Shown here piece by piece: positions 1-6,017 of a stretch of DNA of 24,163 nt. Origin of the DNA: a virus (Duplodnaviria > Heunggongvirae > Uroviricota > Caudoviricetes). A program made the translations under genes and the position numbers. The DNA is taken from IMG/VR virus record IMGVR_UViG_2565956616_000001, positions 1 through 24,163 of that record; one strand, written 5' to 3'. The notes under the pieces were generated by a model. It was not told the origin of the DNA. It was given only the letters and a program-made list of their open reading frames with translations, and made no database searches. Numbering within the stretch: the first letter of the stretch is position 1; each line of letters begins with the position of its first letter.

Positions 1-407
1 GTTGACGAATTCTTGTTTTCCCGAAAGTTTCCTGACTGAAACATGGCTGCGCGATAGTCATTCCACCCTCTTGCATACATGGGATTAACTTGCACTCCAT
101 CTTTTACGCAATATGCCTGACCTCCACGGTTGATAACCTTGATTTCGTCCATAGCGCCAGACTTCAGCCCCGCATTCTCCGCCGCCAACGCCGAAAACTT
201 CTCGTGTGCCAACTTAACAGCCGAATCAGCCTGCTTAATTGACTCAATCGCTTTCTGCTGGTCTTCGGACAGAGCCGAAATCTTGGCCTCCGCTTCAGCA
301 AATTTACGCACCAGATATTCAGCGTTTGTTTCGTTAACCTTTAAATCTCGTGGGATGCATTTACCTTTCAGAAATCCATCCATCTCAATTAGTGACATTT
401 GTTTCAT
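1..407 (-). CDS. hypothetical protein, 3' end truncated by window edge (starts [16 protein letters not shown]...)
   Basis: Minus-strand ATG at 407-405 overlaps the stop of the upstream ORF in an ATGA arrangement; reading frame stays open to position 1. Not in the supplied ORF track; translated by hand. The antisense plus-strand ORF 130-477 is low complexity. Confidence 0.4.
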
Positions 408-568
408 TTCTTCCCACTCCGCCACATTGCATTCAGATATTTGTTTTGATTCACTGATGGAAAAGAATTTCTCTTAAACAATTCCTCTCTCGATGGCATT
501 GGCTTTACGCGTTGGCGAATAATCATTTCTGCCGGAAGAATGCCGGGATTGTATGCAAGTCCTCTCAT
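404..568 (-). CDS. small hypothetical protein (54 aa, [15 protein letters not shown]...)
   Basis: Internal ATG of track ORF 404..718, preceded by GAGGAA Shine-Dalgarno (plus 575-580, reverse complement) 7 nt upstream; the upstream ORF's stop lies inside this RBS. Confidence 0.35.
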
Positions 569-578
569 GGTAAATTCC

Positions 579-872
579 TCAGTCATTACTGATAGCGCCA
601 TAGCGTGAGCGGTAATTACGCAGGCGCGGGTCAATTTCAGGGAAGTGGGTATATGTGGCTTTGCGGAATGGTCGGATTGATGTCTGGTAAATTCGCTCGA
701 GTTCTTCTTTCTCTGCAAGCCATATACAATGGCGAAATTCCTTTTCCTCTTTCGTTTCCTGCGGTAGCGACATTATCCGATCGTAGTTTTTTCTGAATTT
801 ATCCAGCACCTCCGATACGGAATTGCCGGAACAGCGGCGCGGGTCATCCGCACCATACAGAGGCGCTGGCAT
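579..872 (-). CDS. hypothetical protein (97 aa)
   Basis: ORF with AGGAG-like RBS (plus 879-884 CTCCTG, reverse complement) just upstream of ATG at 872; same strand and tight spacing with the exonuclease gene. Confidence 0.45.
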
Positions 873-888
873 GGTTTTCTCCTGTTGA

Positions 889-1437
889 TTATTTAGCTAA
901 CTTTTTCCAGATCGCTGAAACGTATTTGGCTTGGTGAATGGCATCATCAAGAGCGTTGTGGCGAGTTCCTTTGAATGGCATATCTCGCTTAGGGTCGAAT
1001 CCTATTACCTTTCCAAGCTCGACGATTGTTCTTACGTCGCGGTCATTCCACCACTGCCATGGAACTGGCTGCCCTGTCAGCGAATAACTGTTTCGGAGAA
1101 TAACGCAGTCAAATGATGCTCCATTCCCCCAAACCTGAACGAATTTGTGGTTAGCGTTCTTTATGATGAATTCAGATAACCATGAAAGAGCCGTTGAAAG
1201 CTCCTGAGTGTTGCTGGTTAGCGATTTTCTGGCTTCTTCACTCTGTTCCAGCCACCATAAAATCGTTGAAGCGTCAGGACGCGCCCGATATCGCATTGAT
1301 GACTCAAGCGAGATATTTACCGAGAACTCTTCTCCTGTTTCTCCGGTATTCGGGTCAAAGAATACCGCCCCAATAGAAATAACTGGCGCGTATGGCCCGT
1401 TGCCCATTGTTTCAAGGTCAACCATCAAGTGATTCAT
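889..1437 (-). CDS. DnaQ-like (DEDD) 3'-5' exonuclease
   Basis: Translation begins MVDLETMG (the Exo I D-x-E motif) and carries a distal H-x-A-L-x-D-A motif (HNALDDAIHQAKY), typical of DEDDh exonucleases. Confidence 0.7.
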   Translation of the reverse strand: MNHLMVDLETMGNGPYAPVISIGAVFFDPNTGETGEEFSVNISLESSMRYRARPDASTILWWLEQSEEARKSLTSNTQELSTALSWLSEFIIKNANHKFVQVWGNGASFDCVILRNSYSLTGQPVPWQWWNDRDVRTIVELGKVIGFDPKRDMPFKGTRHNALDDAIHQAKYVSAIWKKLAK

Positions 1438-1445
1438 GTAAGTCC

Positions 1446-1925
1446 TTAAATTGCGTGAATAGCGTGACGAGGGAAGGGGAGAGTTACTGGTTCCTCGTCT
1501 GGGTAGATAGGTTTGTTATGTTTGTGCCACTCGACATGACATGACTTGCAGAGCCACATTACATCGGTTGGTTTGCTGTAGTCGCAGTGGTGCGCCTGTG
1601 GTTTACATTCTGATCCGCAGCACTCACATTGTGGTGGTCGGATTAGCTTACCGTCGCGCAAAAAATTACCCACAATGATGTGGGCTTTTCTTTTCCATGG
1701 GTTGCTCTGAATGAACCGCTTTTTGGCTGCGTTACACCGTTCTCTTCCGCGTTCCGATGATTGATATTCTCTCCTTGCTGATACTCGATGTGGCAATCCA
1801 GCGCGTTCTTTGTCGTATTCAGCCAGGCAAGCCCGGCAAGCGGCAGTTAATCCATCTCTGGATGCTCTTCTGATTTGAAAGTCCCTTTCTTCCTTCTGTT
1901 GATGGCATCTTGAGCAGATTTTCAT
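1446..1925 (-). CDS. HNH-family endonuclease-like zinc-binding protein
   Basis: Cys-rich N-terminus (CSRCHQQKEERDF...CRAC) and C-terminal HNH-like motif (CECCGSECKPQAHHCDYSKPTDVMWLCKSCHVEWH). Confidence 0.6.
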   Translation of the reverse strand: MKICSRCHQQKEERDFQIRRASRDGLTAACRACLAEYDKERAGLPHRVSARREYQSSERGRERCNAAKKRFIQSNPWKRKAHIIVGNFLRDGKLIRPPQCECCGSECKPQAHHCDYSKPTDVMWLCKSCHVEWHKHNKPIYPDEEPVTLPFPRHAIHAI

Positions 1926-1934
1926 ATTCAGCTC

Positions 1935-2408
1935 CTAGAACGGAATATCCGAATCGTCGAAGTTCATAGGTGGTTCGCTGTGATTTCCATGCTGCTGAGA
2001 TTGCTGTCTTTGTTGCTGACCGTTATTTCGCTGAGGTGAAGACTGTTCATTGCCTCCTTGCTTGCCACCAAGCATTTGCATGGTTCCACCAACGCCCACG
2101 ATGACTTCGGTAGTGAACCGATCCTGTCCGCTTTGATCCTGCCATTTTCTTGTCCGCAATTTGCCTTCAAGATAAACCTCAGAGCCTTTTCGCAGATATT
2201 CGCTGGCAATTTCTGCCAGTTTCCCGCTCATTACCACACGGTGCCACTCCGTCTGCTCCTTTTGCTCTCCAGTTTGCTTATCACGCCATTGTTCTGACGT
2301 AGCAACTGTAAGGTTTGCAAATGCCGTTCCTGAAGGTGAATATCTGATTTCTGGATCATGCCCAAGGCGACCAATAATGATCACCTTATTTACGCCTCTG
2401 CTTGCCAT
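1935..2408 (-). CDS. ssb: single-stranded DNA-binding protein
   Basis: OB-fold N-terminus ([27 protein letters not shown]), Gly/Gln-rich linker and the canonical acidic tail ending DDSDIPF. Confidence 0.9.
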
Positions 2409-3116
2409 TTATGCCGCCTGTTTTAGCTCGTTAACTCTGATGTTCATTACCTGAACGCATTTAGCCTGCGCATCCTCATTGCCAGCCATTAATTGCCAGT
2501 CACGCTGATAACGCTCGATGAGTTTTTTCTTGTCAGTTTCTGTTGACGCATAATCGCTGAAGTCTTTCAGGATTTGCTCGCAGTCAACCGATGGAGATTT
2601 CTGGTTGGTATTTTCTGGTGATGGTTTGTTATCTGATGCTGGGATTGCCCATCCCGGCAGCGATGGAGGGAGCCAGTAAAATCCTGTTCCATCCTTGAGT
2701 TTTGCCCTGTGCCATCCCTGCTTTTTATCGAGAGATGTTTGTGCGAAACCTTCCTCAAGGTTATACAGATACCGACCGATTCCCCACTGTACGGCAGTGC
2801 GCTTCATTGCACCGGAACGACCACCTTTGACGGCTTCTACCTGCGTGTTTTCAGCAGCATCCCATTTGGTTACCCATTCGGAATCAATCCTGATTGATAT
2901 GCCGCATTCAACGCCGCCGTTGTTAGGAATATCGCGGTATTCATTGCGCCATCCTGCTTTGCCACAAACATCGTCAAGGCGTTTCATGATTGCCCGGTTC
3001 GTGACATAAGCCAGCACCATAGCCCACACTTTGCCATCGCGTGTTTTACCGCTTTGCTGTATTCGCCATTCGATATCTTCAGGGCTGAATGGCTCATCGA
3101 ATTTATTCAAATCCAT
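2409..3116 (-). CDS. Rad52-like single-strand annealing protein (phage recombinase)
   Basis: 235-aa protein with a conserved core (KRTAVQWGIGRYLYNL) resembling Rad52/Sak-type annealing proteins; immediately upstream of and contiguous with ssb (stop/start adjacent at 2408/2409). Confidence 0.65.
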   Translation of the reverse strand: MDLNKFDEPFSPEDIEWRIQQSGKTRDGKVWAMVLAYVTNRAIMKRLDDVCGKAGWRNEYRDIPNNGGVECGISIRIDSEWVTKWDAAENTQVEAVKGGRSGAMKRTAVQWGIGRYLYNLEEGFAQTSLDKKQGWHRAKLKDGTGFYWLPPSLPGWAIPASDNKPSPENTNQKSPSVDCEQILKDFSDYASTETDKKKLIERYQRDWQLMAGNEDAQAKCVQVMNIRVNELKQAA

Positions 3117-3215
3117 AAATCACCTCAGAATGGACACGGCCCAAGGAAATAACGCTGATTTAATACTTCGACTCGGGACAAATTAAGGCATACCCGCATT
3201 CCTTCGCGGTCGCCA

Positions 3216-3374
3216 TTATGGCGATACCAGAGAGCTTTCTGCGTGTACATGCGTCTCTGTAACTTGCTCTCCTTCACTGTGGTTGCAAGTGACATGAATA
3301 TCTCCTTCGTTACCGATTAATTCTTTCATCTGACGAATGAATTCTTCGTCTGACCAGTTATCCGTAAAACTCAT
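3216..3374 (-). CDS. small hypothetical protein (52 aa, MSFTDNWSDEEFIRQMKEL...)
   Basis: ATG at 3374-3372 overlaps the cIII-like stop in an ATGA coupling arrangement; acidic small protein in the kil/cIII neighbourhood. Confidence 0.35.
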   Translation of the reverse strand: MSFTDNWSDEEFIRQMKELIGNEGDIHVTCNHSEGEQVTETHVHAESSLVSP

Positions 3375-3541
3375 GGACGGCCTTGTTGTTTCAAAATATC
3401 CCAAAGCTTTTCGAGCAAACTTTTCATTCTTGGTTGTTTAAAGTCTGCTCCGGTTAAAATATTTTTTCGTGAATGCTGTACCGATAAAATTGGGTTGAAA
3501 GGGCGAACCGATGCCGCCCCTGCAATAGCGAACTGTTGCAT
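3371..3541 (-). CDS. cIII: cIII-like small regulatory protein (56 aa)
   Basis: Internal Met of track ORF 3371..3646 with strong GAAGGAG Shine-Dalgarno (plus 3549-3554 CTCCTT, reverse complement). Sequence MQQFAIAG...KSLLEKLWDILKQQGRP resembles lambda cIII (MQYAIAG...LIDILNQPG) from memory. Confidence 0.5.
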   Translation of the reverse strand: MQQFAIAGAASVRPFNPILSVQHSRKNILTGADFKQPRMKSLLEKLWDILKQQGRP

Positions 3542-3604
3542 AGGATGCTCCTTCTGTTTGATTGCATAACGAAAACGCCTCGAATGAAGCGTTATTGGTA
3601 TGCA

Positions 3605-3631
3605 TATAAAAAAGCCCTCACACTGGAGGGC
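3605..3631 (-). terminator. rho-independent terminator (minus strand)
   Basis: Inverted repeat GCCCTC/GAGGGC (3614-3619 / 3626-3631) with 6-nt loop, followed on the minus strand by a U-run (plus A-run 3605-3613). Confidence 0.5.
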
Positions 3632-3749
3632 AAAGAAGATTTCCAATAATCAGAACAAGTCGGCTCCTGTTTAGTTACGAGCGACATTGCTCCGTGTATT
3701 CACTCGTTGGAATGAATACACAGTGCAGTGTTTATTCTGTTGTTAGTGC

Positions 3750-3775
3750 CAAAAATAAAGGCCGACTATGCGGCC
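3750..3775 (-). terminator. rho-independent terminator (minus strand) at the end of the 212-aa gene
   Basis: GGCCG/CGGCC stem (3760-3764 / 3771-3775) followed on the minus strand by a U-run (plus AAAAATAAA 3751-3759); the gene's stop codon lies in the loop. Confidence 0.5.
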
Positions 3776-4404
3776 TCGGAAGGAAGTCCAATCATCTTAT
3801 TCAAATCTTCTACCCGTAAAGCAGGAAGTGCTGTACTTGCTTTATCTGCTTCTTTTGGTAGCAATTCTTTGCTTTCAGGCCAAACTTCAATAAGTCGCTT
3901 AACTGTTGTGACTGAGTTCAAAGCAGCCCATACATTTGATTCGATATCCTTTTTCTTGGCTTCAAGTTTTTGTTGCAATGCGCAGATTTCATCAAACCTT
4001 TTTGTTATTTCGTGTTCTGCGCTAAACATGCATTTATCTTCGGTCGGAGTAGGGAGCAATATATCTTCGCCGTTGCCGTCTTTCCCATATGAATGCCATC
4101 CAACCCTTCGGCCAGATACAGTCAGATAAATTGAAGTAGAACGAACATCGTATGAGTAAAATGAACATCCCAGTTTTTCAAGTTCTTCACTTATAGCTAC
4201 TAACTTGGAATATAAATGATCCACTTCCTCAGTTTTCTTTTTACCGCCAAACGCAATAACTCTGGCGTCAAGTGCAAGCTGGTTCTTTAACTTTGTTACT
4301 TCTTCAAGTTCAGTGAAAACCCCAGACTTAATTAAAGCGTTACGAGCGATTTCCTCTTTCATTCTCGTAGTTAAGCGGATTGATGACATATTAATTCCTC
4401 TCAA
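3766..4404 (-). CDS. hypothetical protein (212 aa), unrecognised accessory gene
   Basis: Long ORF with GAGG-type RBS upstream of ATG 4404; hydrophilic, no recognisable motif; bracketed by terminators on both sides. Confidence 0.6.
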   Translation of the reverse strand: MRGINMSSIRLTTRMKEEIARNALIKSGVFTELEEVTKLKNQLALDARVIAFGGKKKTEEVDHLYSKLVAISEELEKLGCSFYSYDVRSTSIYLTVSGRRVGWHSYGKDGNGEDILLPTPTEDKCMFSAEHEITKRFDEICALQQKLEAKKKDIESNVWAALNSVTTVKRLIEVWPESKELLPKEADKASTALPALRVEDLNKMIGLPSEAA

Positions 4405-4502
4405 ATAAGTGGTTTGCTACCTAATTTCATTTTCTGGCGACCAACACAAGTCACGCCCATTTCACTGCGTGGCTTGCGGTAGTAAATTAGGTTTGTTCAG
4501 AC

Positions 4503-4525
4503 AATAAAAAACCCACCGAAGTGGG
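4503..4525 (-). terminator. rho-independent terminator (tL1-like) right after the N-like gene
   Basis: CCCAC-CGAA-GTGGG hairpin (4512-4525) followed on the minus strand by a U-run (plus AATAAAAAA 4503-4511). Confidence 0.55.
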
Positions 4526-4864
4526 CTATGACCATTTTTTATTTGGATTTCGTTGGTGAGCGTGATTAACAACTCTGTGCATTACATCCTCATATTTTTC
4601 ATCTTCAATTTTTTCGACATCGCGAGGAAATGGTGTTGCTAATGCTTTGTCAACTTTGTCCATTGGTTCTTCATTAATCTTATATTCAGGACCGTCATCT
4701 ATAGCATTAAATCCAGGTGTTATACCGTTTTTTAATGCATATGCTATCCTTTTTTCCCATCTCGCTATTCTCCTCCTGTCTCGAGATGTAATACCTCTAT
4801 CAGATACTTTTCTGTTTTGTCCGCTGTCAGGATTAACATAAATAGTCTTTTTCACCATAAGCAT
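4526..4864 (-). CDS. N: N-like transcription antiterminator (arginine-rich motif protein)
   Basis: First gene downstream of the OL/pL region on the leftward strand; arginine-rich motif SRDRRRIARWEKR near the N-terminus resembles boxB-binding ARMs of lambdoid N proteins. Start uncertain (TTG 4870, ATG 4864, ATG 4858); weak RBS. Confidence 0.45.
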   Translation of the reverse strand: MLMVKKTIYVNPDSGQNRKVSDRGITSRDRRRIARWEKRIAYALKNGITPGFNAIDDGPEYKINEEPMDKVDKALATPFPRDVEKIEDEKYEDVMHRVVNHAHQRNPNKKWS

Positions 4865-5126
4865 ACCCAATAAGCACCGTACGGTAGTTTACTGTACAAT
4901 TTTATTTTTTGGACTGCATGTATTTTGTTTCCTAATGGGTTTGAATCTTTGCAATAAATACTTCTATTTTTTCGAACGGCTTCTATATCAAAAAGCTGCT
5001 TTGCTTTTGTGACTAAAAGCAAAAAAGCCTTCTCGCTAATGAGCAGCATTGCCGTTCATCCTGAACCCGCCGCGCTCCCGACGCATGGTTTAATGTCGCG
5101 CCGTTCGACATGGCTTAACTATATCC

Positions 5127-5153
5127 AAAGCTATTATTGCTGTAAATAGCTAT
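5127..5153. promoter_or_regulatory. OL-type operator palindrome (AAAGCTATT-N9-AATAGCTAT) within the pL region
   Basis: 9-bp inverted arms separated by 9 bp, the same architecture as a site in the cI-cro intergenic region; AT-rich promoter-like sequence adjacent. Confidence 0.5.
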
Positions 5154-5241
5154 AGTTATAAAATAACTCCTTTGGTTATTTAGTTATTGATATCTAATGT
5201 AATTTATTTTTCTTGTATGTGAGATTTGGTGTTTTTTGGGC

Positions 5242-5285: not shown

Positions 5286-6017
5286 TTAGTAGTCAACTAC
5301 AGACCACCAGAAGATTCTTCCGATGATCTCGATATCGCTTAGATTCTTTTCTTCTTGTGGGTATTCCAGTGAGTTAAAGCTTCTAATGCTTACCTTGTCA
5401 GGCCCTGATCGAAAGAGAATCTTAATGCGTTTCCAACCGTTCTCGTTAATGGCGTAAATCTTTCCGTCAACTATTTTCTTATCGTTGGTGTTAACAGCAA
5501 CTGTTGTTCCATCAGGAATGTTTGGCTCCATACTGTTGCCACGAGCCGGAAAACAAACAACCCCGCTTCCATCACTGTTCGCGCCAACTCTGCGAAGGGT
5601 TGATTTGGAGAAGCGCAACATAAAGCCGTTGTGATCTTCATCAATCACCCGACCATCCCCGCATGCAAACTCAATATCTTTAAGGTAAGGAATTTCAACT
5701 TCATCACCTCTTAAAGGCGTTCCTCCATCCCATGGGTCCAAATATCCCCACGTGCTTTCATGAGGAATAGAAGATTTTGGATTATAAGGTTCAACTCCCT
5801 CATCACGCATTGGCCCAGTTCCATCTGAAAGCCATTCCGTACGAACTCCAAGCACTTTTGATATTTCAAAAAGTTTGCGCGTATTGCGTGTTTTTCCAGA
5901 CGTAAGTTTCCAGACGCTTGGCTGAGACATGCCAACAGCATTGCCAAGAGAAGCCTGAGTAAACCCAGCCTGATCCATCGCGTATGTAAGCCTTTGAGAA
6001 AAAGTATCTAGTTTCAT
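5286..6017 (-). CDS. cI: cI-type prophage repressor (HTH N-domain plus LexA-like S24 peptidase C-domain)
   Basis: N-terminal HTH (QASLGNAVGMSQPSVWKL) and C-terminal S24 autocleavage domain with catalytic Ser (GNSMEP) and a downstream Lys; divergent from cro; no Shine-Dalgarno upstream. Confidence 0.9.
   Translation of the reverse strand: MKLDTFSQRLTYAMDQAGFTQASLGNAVGMSQPSVWKLTSGKTRNTRKLFEISKVLGVRTEWLSDGTGPMRDEGVEPYNPKSSIPHESTWGYLDPWDGGTPLRGDEVEIPYLKDIEFACGDGRVIDEDHNGFMLRFSKSTLRRVGANSDGSGVVCFPARGNSMEPNIPDGTTVAVNTNDKKIVDGKIYAINENGWKRIKILFRSGPDKVSIRSFNSLEYPQEEKNLSDIEIIGRIFWWSVVDY

Follow-up and report, generated by a model that had tools for sequence, protein, structure and literature searches.

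How a 3'-5' exonuclease could serve a phage recombination module built around an annealing protein is not obvious, since its polarity is opposite to that of the 5'-3' resection with which annealing proteins are normally paired. This question was raised by a preliminary description of the window analyzed here, i.e., a 24,163-nt stretch of a Caudoviricetes genome (IMG/VR record IMGVR_UViG_2565956616_000001), whose leftward operon was said to encode a Rad52-like annealing protein (SSAP), a single-stranded DNA-binding protein (SSB), an HNH nuclease and a DEDD exonuclease in place of the lambda proteins. We consider it likely that the region is a Rec module, carried in the early-left operon by a lambdoid phage resembling P22 and Sf6, and composed of a constant SSAP-SSB-Abc2 core and two optional nuclease cassettes.

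Gene content and operon setting of the module

All four open reading frames of that description (235-aa, SSB, HNH and 182-aa) are present, and domain searches sustained their assignment to an annealing protein, an SSB, an HNH nuclease and a DEDDh exonuclease. The call of a non-lambda recombination module was likewise upheld by matches to PF04098, PF00436 and PF11043, and phages Sf6, mEpX2, epsilon34 and Bas106 are annotated in the same way. The four genes were rightly included; however, a fifth, abc2, located directly downstream at 579-872, had been overlooked. The features of the region, with their predicted functions, are as follows:

579..872, minus strand: Abc2 anti-RecBCD protein, 97 aa (PF11043, 7.6e-63, full length)
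889..1437, minus strand: DEDDh 3'-5' exonuclease, 182 aa, DexA/Rv2179c-like; optional cassette with its own ribosome-binding site
1446..1925, minus strand: optional cassette encoding an HNH (His-Me finger) nuclease of 159 aa that has a helical linker and, N-terminally, a 4-Cys zinc ribbon
1446..1490, minus strand: 45-nt segment, 14 codons plus stop (tail PVTLPFPRHAIHAI); the HNH C-terminus here, fused in frame to SSB after DIPF in HNH-less relatives
1935..2408, minus strand: bacterial-type SSB, 157 aa (PF00436, TIGR00621)
2409..3116, minus strand: SSAP, 235 aa (PF04098, phrog_1097)
3125..3404, minus strand: a pair of short, overlapping ORFs (56 aa at 3125-3295 and 62 aa at 3216-3404), homologous to HK97 gp42/42.1
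5118..5162, minus strand: PL-like promoter candidates; upstream of the module there are no other leftward sigma-70-like sites
5286-6017: cI-type repressor gene, with the PL-like promoter candidates downstream of it

The genes are ordered SSAP-SSB-HNH-exo-abc2, all on the minus strand and downstream of the cI-type repressor gene. They are tightly packed, and the module consists of genes for an annealing protein, an SSB, two nucleases and an anti-RecBCD protein, with none extraneous. Since a consensus scan, itself weak evidence, found no promoter-like site on the minus strand inside 300-5100, we take the module to belong to the early-left operon.

The N-terminal domain of the SSAP (residues 4-136, about 2709-3107) is of Rad52/Sak type, matching PF04098 with an E value of 4.1e-25 (88.9 bits against a cutoff of 20.3), and the protein matches phrog_1097 at 3.8e-129. 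The earlier label "Rad52-like" therefore suits the N-terminal domain but not the last 79 aa or so, which form an Erf-type domain (residues 157-235, about 2412-2648). These 79 residues are 65% identical to the C-terminus of P22 Erf, while the N-terminus is unrelated to Erf; in keeping with this, P22 Erf matches phrog_1097 through its C-terminal part only. Sequence searches for a solved structural relative of the SSAP returned none, and its predicted function as an annealing protein follows from these profile matches.

Whether the two small ORFs at 3125-3404 are members of the module is uncertain. They accompany the SSAP in most related loci, fill the position held by arf in P22, and match phrog_1723 and phrog_2123, both of which carry the label "recombinase". 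That label is unsupported, since P22 Arf belongs to phrog_2445 and a tblastn comparison with Arf was not significant. More broadly, tblastn searches of the window for homologues of P22 Arf, Abc1, Kil and CIII gave nothing significant.

Abc2 and the polarity of resection

The protein encoded by abc2 is 93% identical to P22 Abc2 and retains both Pro68, which engages PpiB, and the IRPFRK segment; of 80 related loci, 79 carry it. In modules of the P22 type, 5'-3' resection is known to come from host RecBCD by way of Abc2 (PMC9836394, PMC5928155). Abc2 binds RecC, changing both the response of RecBCD to Chi and its 5' nuclease activity (PMC9836394). Given its identity to the P22 protein, we infer that the window's Abc2 would hijack RecBCD in the same manner. 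The window contains no Chi site, but with 0.71 expected this count is uninformative as to an Abc2 lifestyle.

Since Abc2 turns RecBCD into a 5'-3' resection enzyme, the polarity puzzle largely disappears. The supposed pairing of a 3'-5' exonuclease with the annealing protein is not supported, given the recognition of abc2 and the facts that half of the modules with the same SSAP lack any nuclease and that the exonuclease family also occurs without an SSAP. The value of the finding lies mainly in correct annotation, i.e., of a catalogued lambdoid Rec module that poses no polarity paradox.

In the working proposed for the module, Abc2 would bind RecC and make RecBCD the 5'-3' resection enzyme, and SSB would coat the resulting 3' single strand. 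The acidic tip of SSB may then help to load the SSAP, by analogy with HK620, and the SSAP would anneal complementary strands in genome circularization, repair and recombination-dependent replication. The HNH and exonuclease genes are separate, independently assorting cassettes inserted between ssb and abc2.

Distribution of the nuclease genes

A census was drawn of 79 loci whose annealing protein is at least 98% identical to that of the window. SSAP, SSB and Abc2 were constant throughout, whereas nuclease content varied: 39 loci had none, 18 the exonuclease only, 18 the HNH gene only and 4 both. Each nuclease was therefore present in 22 of the 79 loci, independently of the other (Fisher p 0.28), and the order was always SSB-HNH-exo-abc2. 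Since the core is constant and the nucleases are variable and unlinked, the latter are best described as independent optional cassettes. The borders of the exonuclease cassette could be read directly as TAA/GGACTTACATG...TAAATAATCAAC/AGGAG, the slashes marking its ends.

The exact five-gene order was found in 37 of 5,426 E. coli genomes and in phage Bas106, which was also the one phage record among 50,697 to contain the HNH-exo junction. A combination of HNH and exonuclease genes is not described in the text of a 325-phage survey (PMC12315714). The module with both nucleases is rare, yet it is merely the union of two known types.

The HNH gene and the 3' end of ssb

The 159-aa protein has a beta-beta-alpha metal finger with the catalytic His and zinc-binding CxxC pairs. 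No Pfam or NCBIfam model matches it or any of 34 family members, and its sole database label is that of PHROG 2340, "endonuclease". The family, a Pfam orphan, is very large, comprising tens of thousands of 50%-identity clusters.

The SSB itself is identified by profile matches (PF00436, 1.7e-38; TIGR00621, 181.5 against a cutoff of 53.95) and, as first described, ends in DIPF: the ORF closes with ...DSDIPF*, leaving an acidic tip with a free carboxyl terminus. In HNH-less relatives this tip is internal rather than terminal, since the SSB continues for 15 residues past DIPF and these extra residues match the HNH C-terminus. The shared segment, 1446..1490 in the window, spans 46 nt in BLAST matches; the records of phages HK75, ECP1 and CP-1639 match this segment only, within their SSB genes, and in the annotation of Sf6 gp26 a stretch of 14 aa is said to be shared identically with an "E. 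coli SSB". In HNH-less alleles the 3' end of ssb reads ...ATGGATTTTGACGACGATATCCCCTTTGCACCAGTAACTCTC... HNH-carrying alleles have a recoded patch of their own in the last ~30 nt of ssb (1938-1967), comprising 7 substitutions and a 3-nt indel, while over the preceding ~1.1 kb HNH-carrying and HNH-less alleles are at least 99% identical.

In this lineage the phage SSB thus occurs in two states coupled to the HNH gene, one with a free DIPF tip and one in which the tip is masked by 15 residues. Since SSB tips recruit host repair proteins and phage annealing proteins, this polymorphism could alter recombineering efficiency and host takeover.

The HNH gene always lies directly after the DIPF codons of ssb, in two SSB linker alleles and in two HNH lineages that are 48% identical. 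Its presence in 22 of 79 otherwise near-identical modules, at one precise site and with a 30-nt recoded flank, supports the early suggestion of a selfish insertion; for the anti-restriction role offered as an alternative we found no evidence. Most likely, the protein is a free-standing homing-type endonuclease whose gene inserts itself precisely behind the terminal DIPF codons of ssb. One HNH copy, at locus L160, has an in-frame stop, and pieces of HNH are also found joined to SSB or the exonuclease; these fit a cycle of gain, decay and loss.

The association with SSB tips extends across the family. Among 135 loci with HNH relatives, 114 had the HNH gene directly downstream of a gene ending in an SSB-type acidic IPF tip, compared to 14 of 738 control windows. 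The strict pattern [DE][IVL]PF gave 86 of 135, and the count of 114 was reached after the definition was relaxed for variant tips, with controls scored under that same definition. The genes upstream represent five or more protein families that are unrelated to one another, HNH divergence is decoupled from that of the upstream gene (e.g., 96% versus 12% identity), and DNA identity climbs at the tip codons. The association suggests homing to ssb 3' ends. That the family consists of homing endonucleases specialized on DNA encoding the acidic ...D-I-P-F tip of ssDNA-binding proteins is a tentative proposal, to which we give slightly less than an even chance.

If this were true, the 3' ends of SSB genes of unrelated kinds (OB-fold, DUF669, Gp2.5-like and others) would be open to invasion across bacterial phyla and archaeal viruses, by a widespread class of mobile element taking advantage of a short motif that is among the most conserved in bacterial DNA metabolism. 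In the Sf6 lineage, insertion would split the 15-residue extension off SSB, such that the HNH gene decides whether the canonical partner-binding tip is exposed. The family might also be a source of nucleases with a predictable target.

Alternatively, the HNH-less state could be the derived one: an ancestral SSB(DIPF*)-HNH pair would have lost HNH, an old resident, by a deletion that kept the frame and left the final 15 codons of HNH joined to ssb. All HNH-less alleles do retain the 45-46 nt of the HNH 3' end, the fused tail (APVTLPF...) is exactly the C-terminus of the P0021/22-type HNH, Ala included, partial HNH remnants fused to SSB or exonuclease are known, and canonical SSBs end at IPF. 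However, the tail is absent from distant HNH homologues and the recoded flank sits on the HNH-carrying allele. Moreover, tails of the form A/S-P-V-G-L-Q-Y-x-R-H-x-I-x-A-L follow the IPF of distant phage SSB-like proteins that have an intact HNH gene downstream (loci L107, L109 and L114). The tail therefore appears to be associated with SSB, for which reason the simple reading of it as an HNH leftover was downgraded to a rival; we consider a derived HNH-less state unlikely, though credible.

The 3'-5' exonuclease and its possible roles

The assignment of the 182-aa protein to the DEDD/DnaQ-like exonucleases proved sound. It matches PF16473 at 2.9e-73 (245.7 bits against a cutoff of 27) and T4 DexA (PDB 8KEL) at 9.5e-14 with 32% identity, and the catalytic residues D7, E9, D110, H160 and D165 are invariant, T4 DexA included. 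In the alignment with DexA, made at 32% identity, W130 corresponds to DexA W152, and D169 falls at V143 with an Asp four residues later; the tetramer residues S87 and D90 of DexA are not conserved, D90 falling at a gap or at T82. The protein is a portable relative of T4 DexA and, judged from this similarity, probably degrades DNA from its 3' ends as DexA does, though RNA may instead be its substrate since the Pfam namesake Rv2179c is an exoribonuclease. Its most likely role is the trimming of 3' tails or flaps, or other DNA-end processing; it is not the resection partner of the annealing protein.

Could both nucleases nevertheless be selected members of an integrated machine, the HNH protein nicking or breaking DNA or joining SSB-coated DNA through DIPF and the exonuclease processing ends together with the SSAP? 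The tight packing of the operon would suit such a machine, and the 2025 survey holds the same view for the epsilon34 DnaQ and ES18 HNH proteins (PMC12315714). An SSAP, an SSB, the same HNH family and a DEDD exonuclease also recur independently in non-homologous Sak4 modules, and the HNH gene follows that of SSB in ERF, Rad52, Sak4 and Gp2.5 contexts and in SPP1. However, the 39 of 79 modules that manage with neither nuclease, the independent assortment of the two and the decoupled divergence of HNH and SSB all argue against it. A partnership would not need the HNH gene to follow the tip codons directly, members of the exonuclease family are found in prophages without annealing proteins, and an HNH protein of S. 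aureus phage 80-alpha was reported to be dispensable (PMC6316719). We therefore regard integration as quite unlikely and favor optional cassettes.

It is more improbable still that the exonuclease is an EcD/HREX-type nuclease of competitor exclusion or defence that degrades hydroxymethylcytosine-modified (T-even) DNA and takes no part in recombination, even though it belongs to the T4 DexA family, lacks S87 and D90 while conserving the W152 equivalent, and has homologues that in other prophages neighbour genes related to DNA modification (DndB-like, Dam), and even though the E. coli DexA homolog EcD cuts 5hmC DNA only and protects against T4 from a plasmid-borne copy (PMC12153337). EcD, known here by its start and primers, has a different sequence (beginning MIDTET), and no protein with that start occurs among the 120 closest homologues; D169 has no conserved counterpart in the alignment, and the evidence on EcD comes from plasmid expression only. 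The position of the gene in a repressed early-left operon, without a promoter-like site of its own in the consensus scan, also hints that it would stay silent in a lysogen. The EcD (HAK9828821.1) primer-pair pattern had no match in viral contigs; a single 20-mer primer match was due to chance, with no DexA-like ORF there.

Comparison with known systems

Modules of this kind are catalogued as ES18-type lambdoid Rec modules (the "ES18 functional type"; Casjens 2004), with DnaQ-like and HNH nuclease types listed (PMC12315714); with its two nucleases, the window exceeds the 0-4 genes described there. The swap of the Erf C-terminal domain and the unusual nuclease had already been remarked upon (PMC2629481).

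Shigella phage Sf6 (genes 25-28: abc2, gp26, ssb, gp28) shares the SSAP, SSB, HNH and abc2 genes, arranged as in the window with ~98.5% DNA identity and at the same early-left position, but it has no exonuclease cassette, which in the window lies between HNH and abc2. Conversely, Salmonella phage epsilon34 (genes 33-36) and the E. coli phages mEpX2 and mEp235, all of DnaQ type, have the order SSAP-SSB-exonuclease-abc2 with an exonuclease region 93-99% identical to that of the window; they lack HNH, and their SSBs of 168-171 aa bear the 15-aa extension past DIPF. Escherichia phage CurroJimenez_Bas106 (PQ850599), an uncharacterized phage, has the identical five-gene order at 98.2% identity (99.8% across the HNH-exo junction), although upstream of the SSAP its sequence departs from that of the window.

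The P22 erf-abc1-abc2-arf system shares Abc2 and the Erf C-terminal domain with the window and, since RecBCD is hijacked, neither has a phage resection nuclease. P22 differs in having the Erf N-terminal domain, Abc1 and Arf but no SSB, whereas in the window the N-terminal domain is of Rad52/Sak type, an SSB is encoded, and neither Abc1 nor Arf was detected. The Sak4-SSB-Abc2 module of HK620 also combines an SSAP, a cognate SSB and Abc2, and its SSB C-terminal hexapeptide is required to stimulate annealing (PMC5928155); however, its RecA-like Sak4 SSAP and DUF669 SSB are both non-homologous to those of the window.

The exonuclease shares the DEDDh family, the catalytic residues and W152 with T4 DexA (8KEL) and EcD/"HREX" (PMC12153337). 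DexA is a 3'-5' DNA exonuclease whose roles include support of intron homing; the window protein differs in having neither the extra loops nor the S87/D90 tetramer contacts of DexA, and no residue that clearly corresponds to D169.

The setting of the HNH gene resembles that of T4 segG, a homing endonuclease gene which lies beside gene 32 (SSB) and encodes a GIY-YIG enzyme. It likewise resembles that of SPP1 gp36.1, which lies after ssb gene 36 (PMC6316719). All three share a nuclease gene beside an SSB gene, a sporadic distribution and altered flanking markers. They differ in the enzyme concerned, since SegG is of the class named above and gp36.1 is I-HmuI-like, whereas the HNH protein of the window represents a separate, Pfam-orphan family of putative homing endonucleases.

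Gene content of the recombination module

Four tightly packed minus-strand ORFs were found in the window at precisely the coordinates of the preliminary description, which had read them as a non-lambda recombination module. Pfam and TIGR profile matches confirmed three of these assignments, among them Rad52_Rad22 for the 235-aa single-strand annealing protein (SSAP) and a DEDDh exonuclease for the 182-aa protein. The 159-aa protein is a putative HNH nuclease by motif and fold, a call in which a curated profile plays no part; Pfam has no model for its family. The fifth gene, abc2, had been overlooked.

Features of the module
2409-3116, minus strand: SSAP, 235 aa; Pfam Rad52_Rad22, E 4.1e-25, far over the curated cutoff
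1935-2408, minus strand: bacterial-type SSB, 157 aa; PF00436, 1.7e-38; TIGR00621 over cutoff; C-terminus ...NFDDSDIPF
1446-1925, minus strand: putative HNH nuclease, 159 aa
889-1437, minus strand: exonuclease, 182 aa; PF16473 (Rv2179c-like DEDDh exonuclease), 2.9e-73
579-872, minus strand: abc2, 97 aa; PF11043, 7.6e-63; starts 16 bases downstream of the exonuclease gene

The label "Rad52-like" held for the N-terminal domain of the SSAP and failed for its last ~79 residues, which share 65% identity with the P22 Erf C-terminal domain. Judged by sequence, the protein is a chimera, Rad52/Sak-like in its N-terminal domain only, and the Erf domain swap explains its "Erf-like" database label; the same swap was noted earlier in the epsilon34 genome paper (PMC2629481).

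Nuclease genes as optional cassettes

Among 79 IMG/VR loci whose SSAP is at least 98% identical to that of the window (the census), SSAP, SSB and abc2 formed a constant core (79/79). Neither nuclease was present in 39 loci, the exonuclease only in 18, HNH only in 18 and both in 4, with a Fisher p of 0.28 for co-occurrence, and the order SSB-HNH-exo-abc2 was kept without exception. HNH and exonuclease are optional cassettes with distinct borders that assort independently of each other; the exonuclease cassette comprises the gene and its own ribosome-binding site, set into the spacer between ssb or HNH and abc2.

The module also resembles a hotspot for free-standing endonuclease genes. In some relatives, an HNH_3-type (PF13392) gene with a helix-turn-helix tail lies at the SSAP-ssb junction or just upstream of SSAP (loci L013, 5709-6170; L092, 2060-2527; L107, 1979-2446), and the L092 module holds two HNH genes.

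An HNH family beside SSB tips

The HNH family comprises 31,242 50%-identity clusters (E <= 1e-10). Distant homologs were sampled in nine contexts, and in 9/9 HNH is immediately preceded by a gene ending in an SSB-type acidic ...IPF tip; these upstream proteins come from families unrelated to one another and lie near annealing proteins of Rad52, ERF or Sak4 types. A larger sample covered 160 loci from viral contigs and genomes of many phyla, 135 with a near-complete HNH, and a tip was counted if it ended within -150 to +90 nt of the HNH start. Tips were observed beside HNH in 114/135 loci (84%) vs 14/738 control windows (odds ratio 281, p 7e-104), in 110/117 relatives at least 39% identical, and in 81/101 lineages after clustering at 70% identity. 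A stricter tip regex, tried first, gave 86/135 vs 1/620 controls. The upstream proteins included OB-fold SSBs, DUF669/HK620-type SSBs, a Gp2.5-like protein, phrog_4477 and small phrog_18187 proteins.

Divergence of HNH is decoupled from that of the upstream gene: in Psychrobacter, HNHs are 82-96% identical and their upstream proteins only ~10%. In three groups, DNA identity is at background level ahead of the tip codons, jumps there to 0.6-0.8 and remains elevated across the spacer and HNH. Because of this strict position and the decoupled neighbours, we favour a homing endonuclease family aimed at SSB-tip-coding DNA, in which HNH would home; the possibility of a selfish insertion, raised in the preliminary description, is supported. 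The rival explanation, that the SSB tip recruits the nuclease and selection keeps the two adjacent, is kept alive by the independent recurrence of SSAP, SSB, this HNH family and a different DEDD exonuclease in Sak4-type modules of Hafnia (L091, 901-3540) and Pantoea (L095, 909-3498). These contain an ExoX-like DEDD exonuclease (PF00929 + PF20600), a Sak4-like SSAP, an HK620-type SSB with the C-terminus DDDIPFN and a relative of the window HNH, and are an independent, non-homologous counterpart of the same four-function set. Our literature search found no paper on an association between this HNH family and SSB tips; SPP1 likewise has the order SSAP-SSB-HNH, with an HNH of another type (PMC6316719).

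Relatives of HNH occur far beyond Enterobacteria, in a Haloarculaceae archaeon MAG (L229), Thermotogota (L219) and Saccharibacteria (L200, L259). The gene directly before HNH ends ...DSDIPF or ...DDDVPF in L229 and L219, a DSDIPF-ending ORF lies ~270 nt upstream in L200, and no tip-ending gene was found upstream of HNH in L259.

HNH and the SSB tail

Every HNH-carrying census locus encodes an SSB terminating in DIPF, and in 56/57 HNH-less loci the SSB continues as ...DDDIPF-APVTLPFPRHAIHAI. The tail APVTLPFPRHAIHAI is the same 14-15 residues that close the window HNH protein (window 1446-1490; SSB end 1935-1967); the Sf6 annotation mentions 14 residues common to its protein and an "E. coli SSB". 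The lineage thus has two SSB forms, free DIPF with HNH always present and DIPF-APVTLPFPRHAIHAI with HNH absent (e.g., L008, L029, L075). Since SSB partners bind the carboxylate of the terminal Phe, the tail-extended SSB may be functionally masked.

Two different SSB linker alleles share the position of the HNH indel, and the same ssb site is used by a second lineage of HNH with only 48% identity. Between the window and an HNH-less locus of the same SSB allele, identity is 99-100% up to ~30 nt before the ssb stop; the last ~30 nt hold 7 substitutions and a 3-nt indel, mainly synonymous recoding, and the shared 45-nt tail is back at 100%. Sequence comparison found the tail absent from distant HNH homologs, and in distant phages SSB-like proteins carry tails like APVTLPFPRHAIHAI beyond their IPF tip. 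Insertion of HNH between SSB tip and tail is therefore favoured; origin of the HNH-less state through deletion is the rival, and still a serious one. In L160 the start region of HNH contains an in-frame stop (…CSRCHQ*KEER…), and several database proteins are SSB-HNH or HNH-exonuclease fusions covering only 31-70% of HNH (P0011, P0014, P0024, P0053, P0060, P0063); both look like decaying cassette copies, and fit a cycle of HNH gain, decay and loss.

Short post-tip extensions of SSB-like proteins in distant phages, e.g., ASVGLQYGRHRIYAL, APVGLQYARHAISALYA and APAYARAAWSIA, suggest a loose shared motif, A-P-x...R/K...A-I/L (L107, SSB 3092-3562; L109, 2534-3508; L114, L127, L138, L163, L201, L215), and are seen even with an intact HNH downstream.

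In E. coli MB06231 (L087, NZ_CM129886.1), the 159-aa HNH ORF is unannotated by RefSeq/PGAP: the annotation is blank for 497 nt (2697-3193) from "3'-5' exonuclease" to "ssb". E. coli genomes thus probably contain more copies of the gene than are reported.

Abc2 and the role of the exonuclease

The preliminary description had considered the 3'-5' polarity of the exonuclease puzzling beside an annealing protein. The adjoining abc2 encodes a protein with 93% identity to P22 Abc2, which has been studied experimentally; Pro68 is retained. Abc2 is a RecC-binding protein, and in the proposed mechanism it commandeers RecBCD, which then produces ssDNA for the phage recombinase; phages with an Abc2 gene usually encode no resection exonuclease themselves (PMC9836394, PMC5928155). 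Given this identity, resection would be carried out by Abc2-RecBCD; the 3'-5' exonuclease need not be the resection partner, and the puzzle is mostly dissolved. The SSB tip may help to load the SSAP, by analogy with HK620, in which loss of the last six SSB residues lowers recombineering tenfold.

The five catalytic residues of the exonuclease are invariant throughout its family. Since that family is very large (3,806 matches) and ~60%-identical homologs lie in prophages with no annealing protein seen nearby, the exonuclease is a portable accessory gene and not a dedicated SSAP partner. Of the relatives with a solved structure, T4 DexA (8KEL) is nearest to it; DexA is a 3'-5' DNA exonuclease with roles in scavenging of host DNA and intron homing. 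Most likely, the enzyme would act on DNA 3' ends, trimming 3' tails or flaps in annealing-based repair. A lysogen-defence role is possible, as EcD, an E. coli homolog of DexA, is reported to cut 5hmC-modified DNA only and to protect against T4 (PMC12153337), but is not favoured because EcD, known here from primer sequences, differs in sequence and the window gene belongs to the repressed early-left operon, for which a promoter scan showed no separate promoter-like site at this gene.

The exonuclease family is loosely tied to DNA-modification genes. The ~60% homologs in Salmonella and Klebsiella (L097-L103) adjoin DndB-like (PF14072) genes near prophage integrases, and in P2-like prophages of Serratia (L104-L105) they immediately precede a Dam-type methyltransferase and gpA.

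Other genes of the early-left operon

Features upstream of the module
3125-3404, minus strand: two overlapping small ORFs (56 and 62 aa), homologs of HK97 gp42/42.1
3371-3646, minus strand: ORF with ...MQQFAIAGAAS...SLLEKLWDILKQQG..., weakly CIII-like (P22 c3 tblastn, 29%/52 aa, E 0.7)
3766-4404, minus strand: 212-aa protein, full-length Pfam match to Nmad5 (nucleotide modification associated domain 5), E 3.7e-71
4526-4870, minus strand, N position: PHROG "Nun-like transcription termination factor" match, 9e-70

The small ORFs carry the PHROG label "recombinase" with no visible support; the ...WSDEEFI... of the 62-aa ORF recalls ...FSDEEFI... of P22 Arf, a homology that is not significant. Only a subset of related loci has the Nmad5 gene, which here lies after the N/Nun-like gene and ahead of the Rec module. 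Terminator-like hairpins follow the N-position gene (4527-4510, 3777-3758, 3631-3614), and a search of the window detected no Kil homolog.

Comparison with known modules

The module region matches 245 phage records and 1,387/5,426 complete E. coli genomes. Sf6 genes 25-28 are abc2, HNH, ssb and SSAP, and mEpX2, mEp235 and epsilon34 carry abc2, exonuclease, ssb and SSAP. Upstream of ~3374, the window departs from Sf6 and mEpX2. In phage Bas106, all five genes stand in the identical order, at 98.2% identity. In a 2025 survey classifying the Rec modules of 325 lambdoid phages (PMC12315714), the module belongs to the "ES18 functional type", found in 25 phages. The survey recognises four types of Rec-module nuclease, DnaQ-like 3'-5' and HNH enzymes among them, and says of the DnaQ-like enzymes that they "curiously, usually inhibit homologous recombination"; its text lists modules with two same-function genes in only three phages, none with HNH + DnaQ. 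As the HNH-exonuclease junction is also scarce (1/50,697 phage records; 37/5,426 E. coli genomes), the window is a rare union of two described module types. Overall, the module is real yet largely ordinary, since its type is catalogued, a deposited phage is near-identical and a neighbouring gene answers the central puzzle; the rarity of its two-nuclease form and the SSB-tail and HNH observations place it slightly above the routine.
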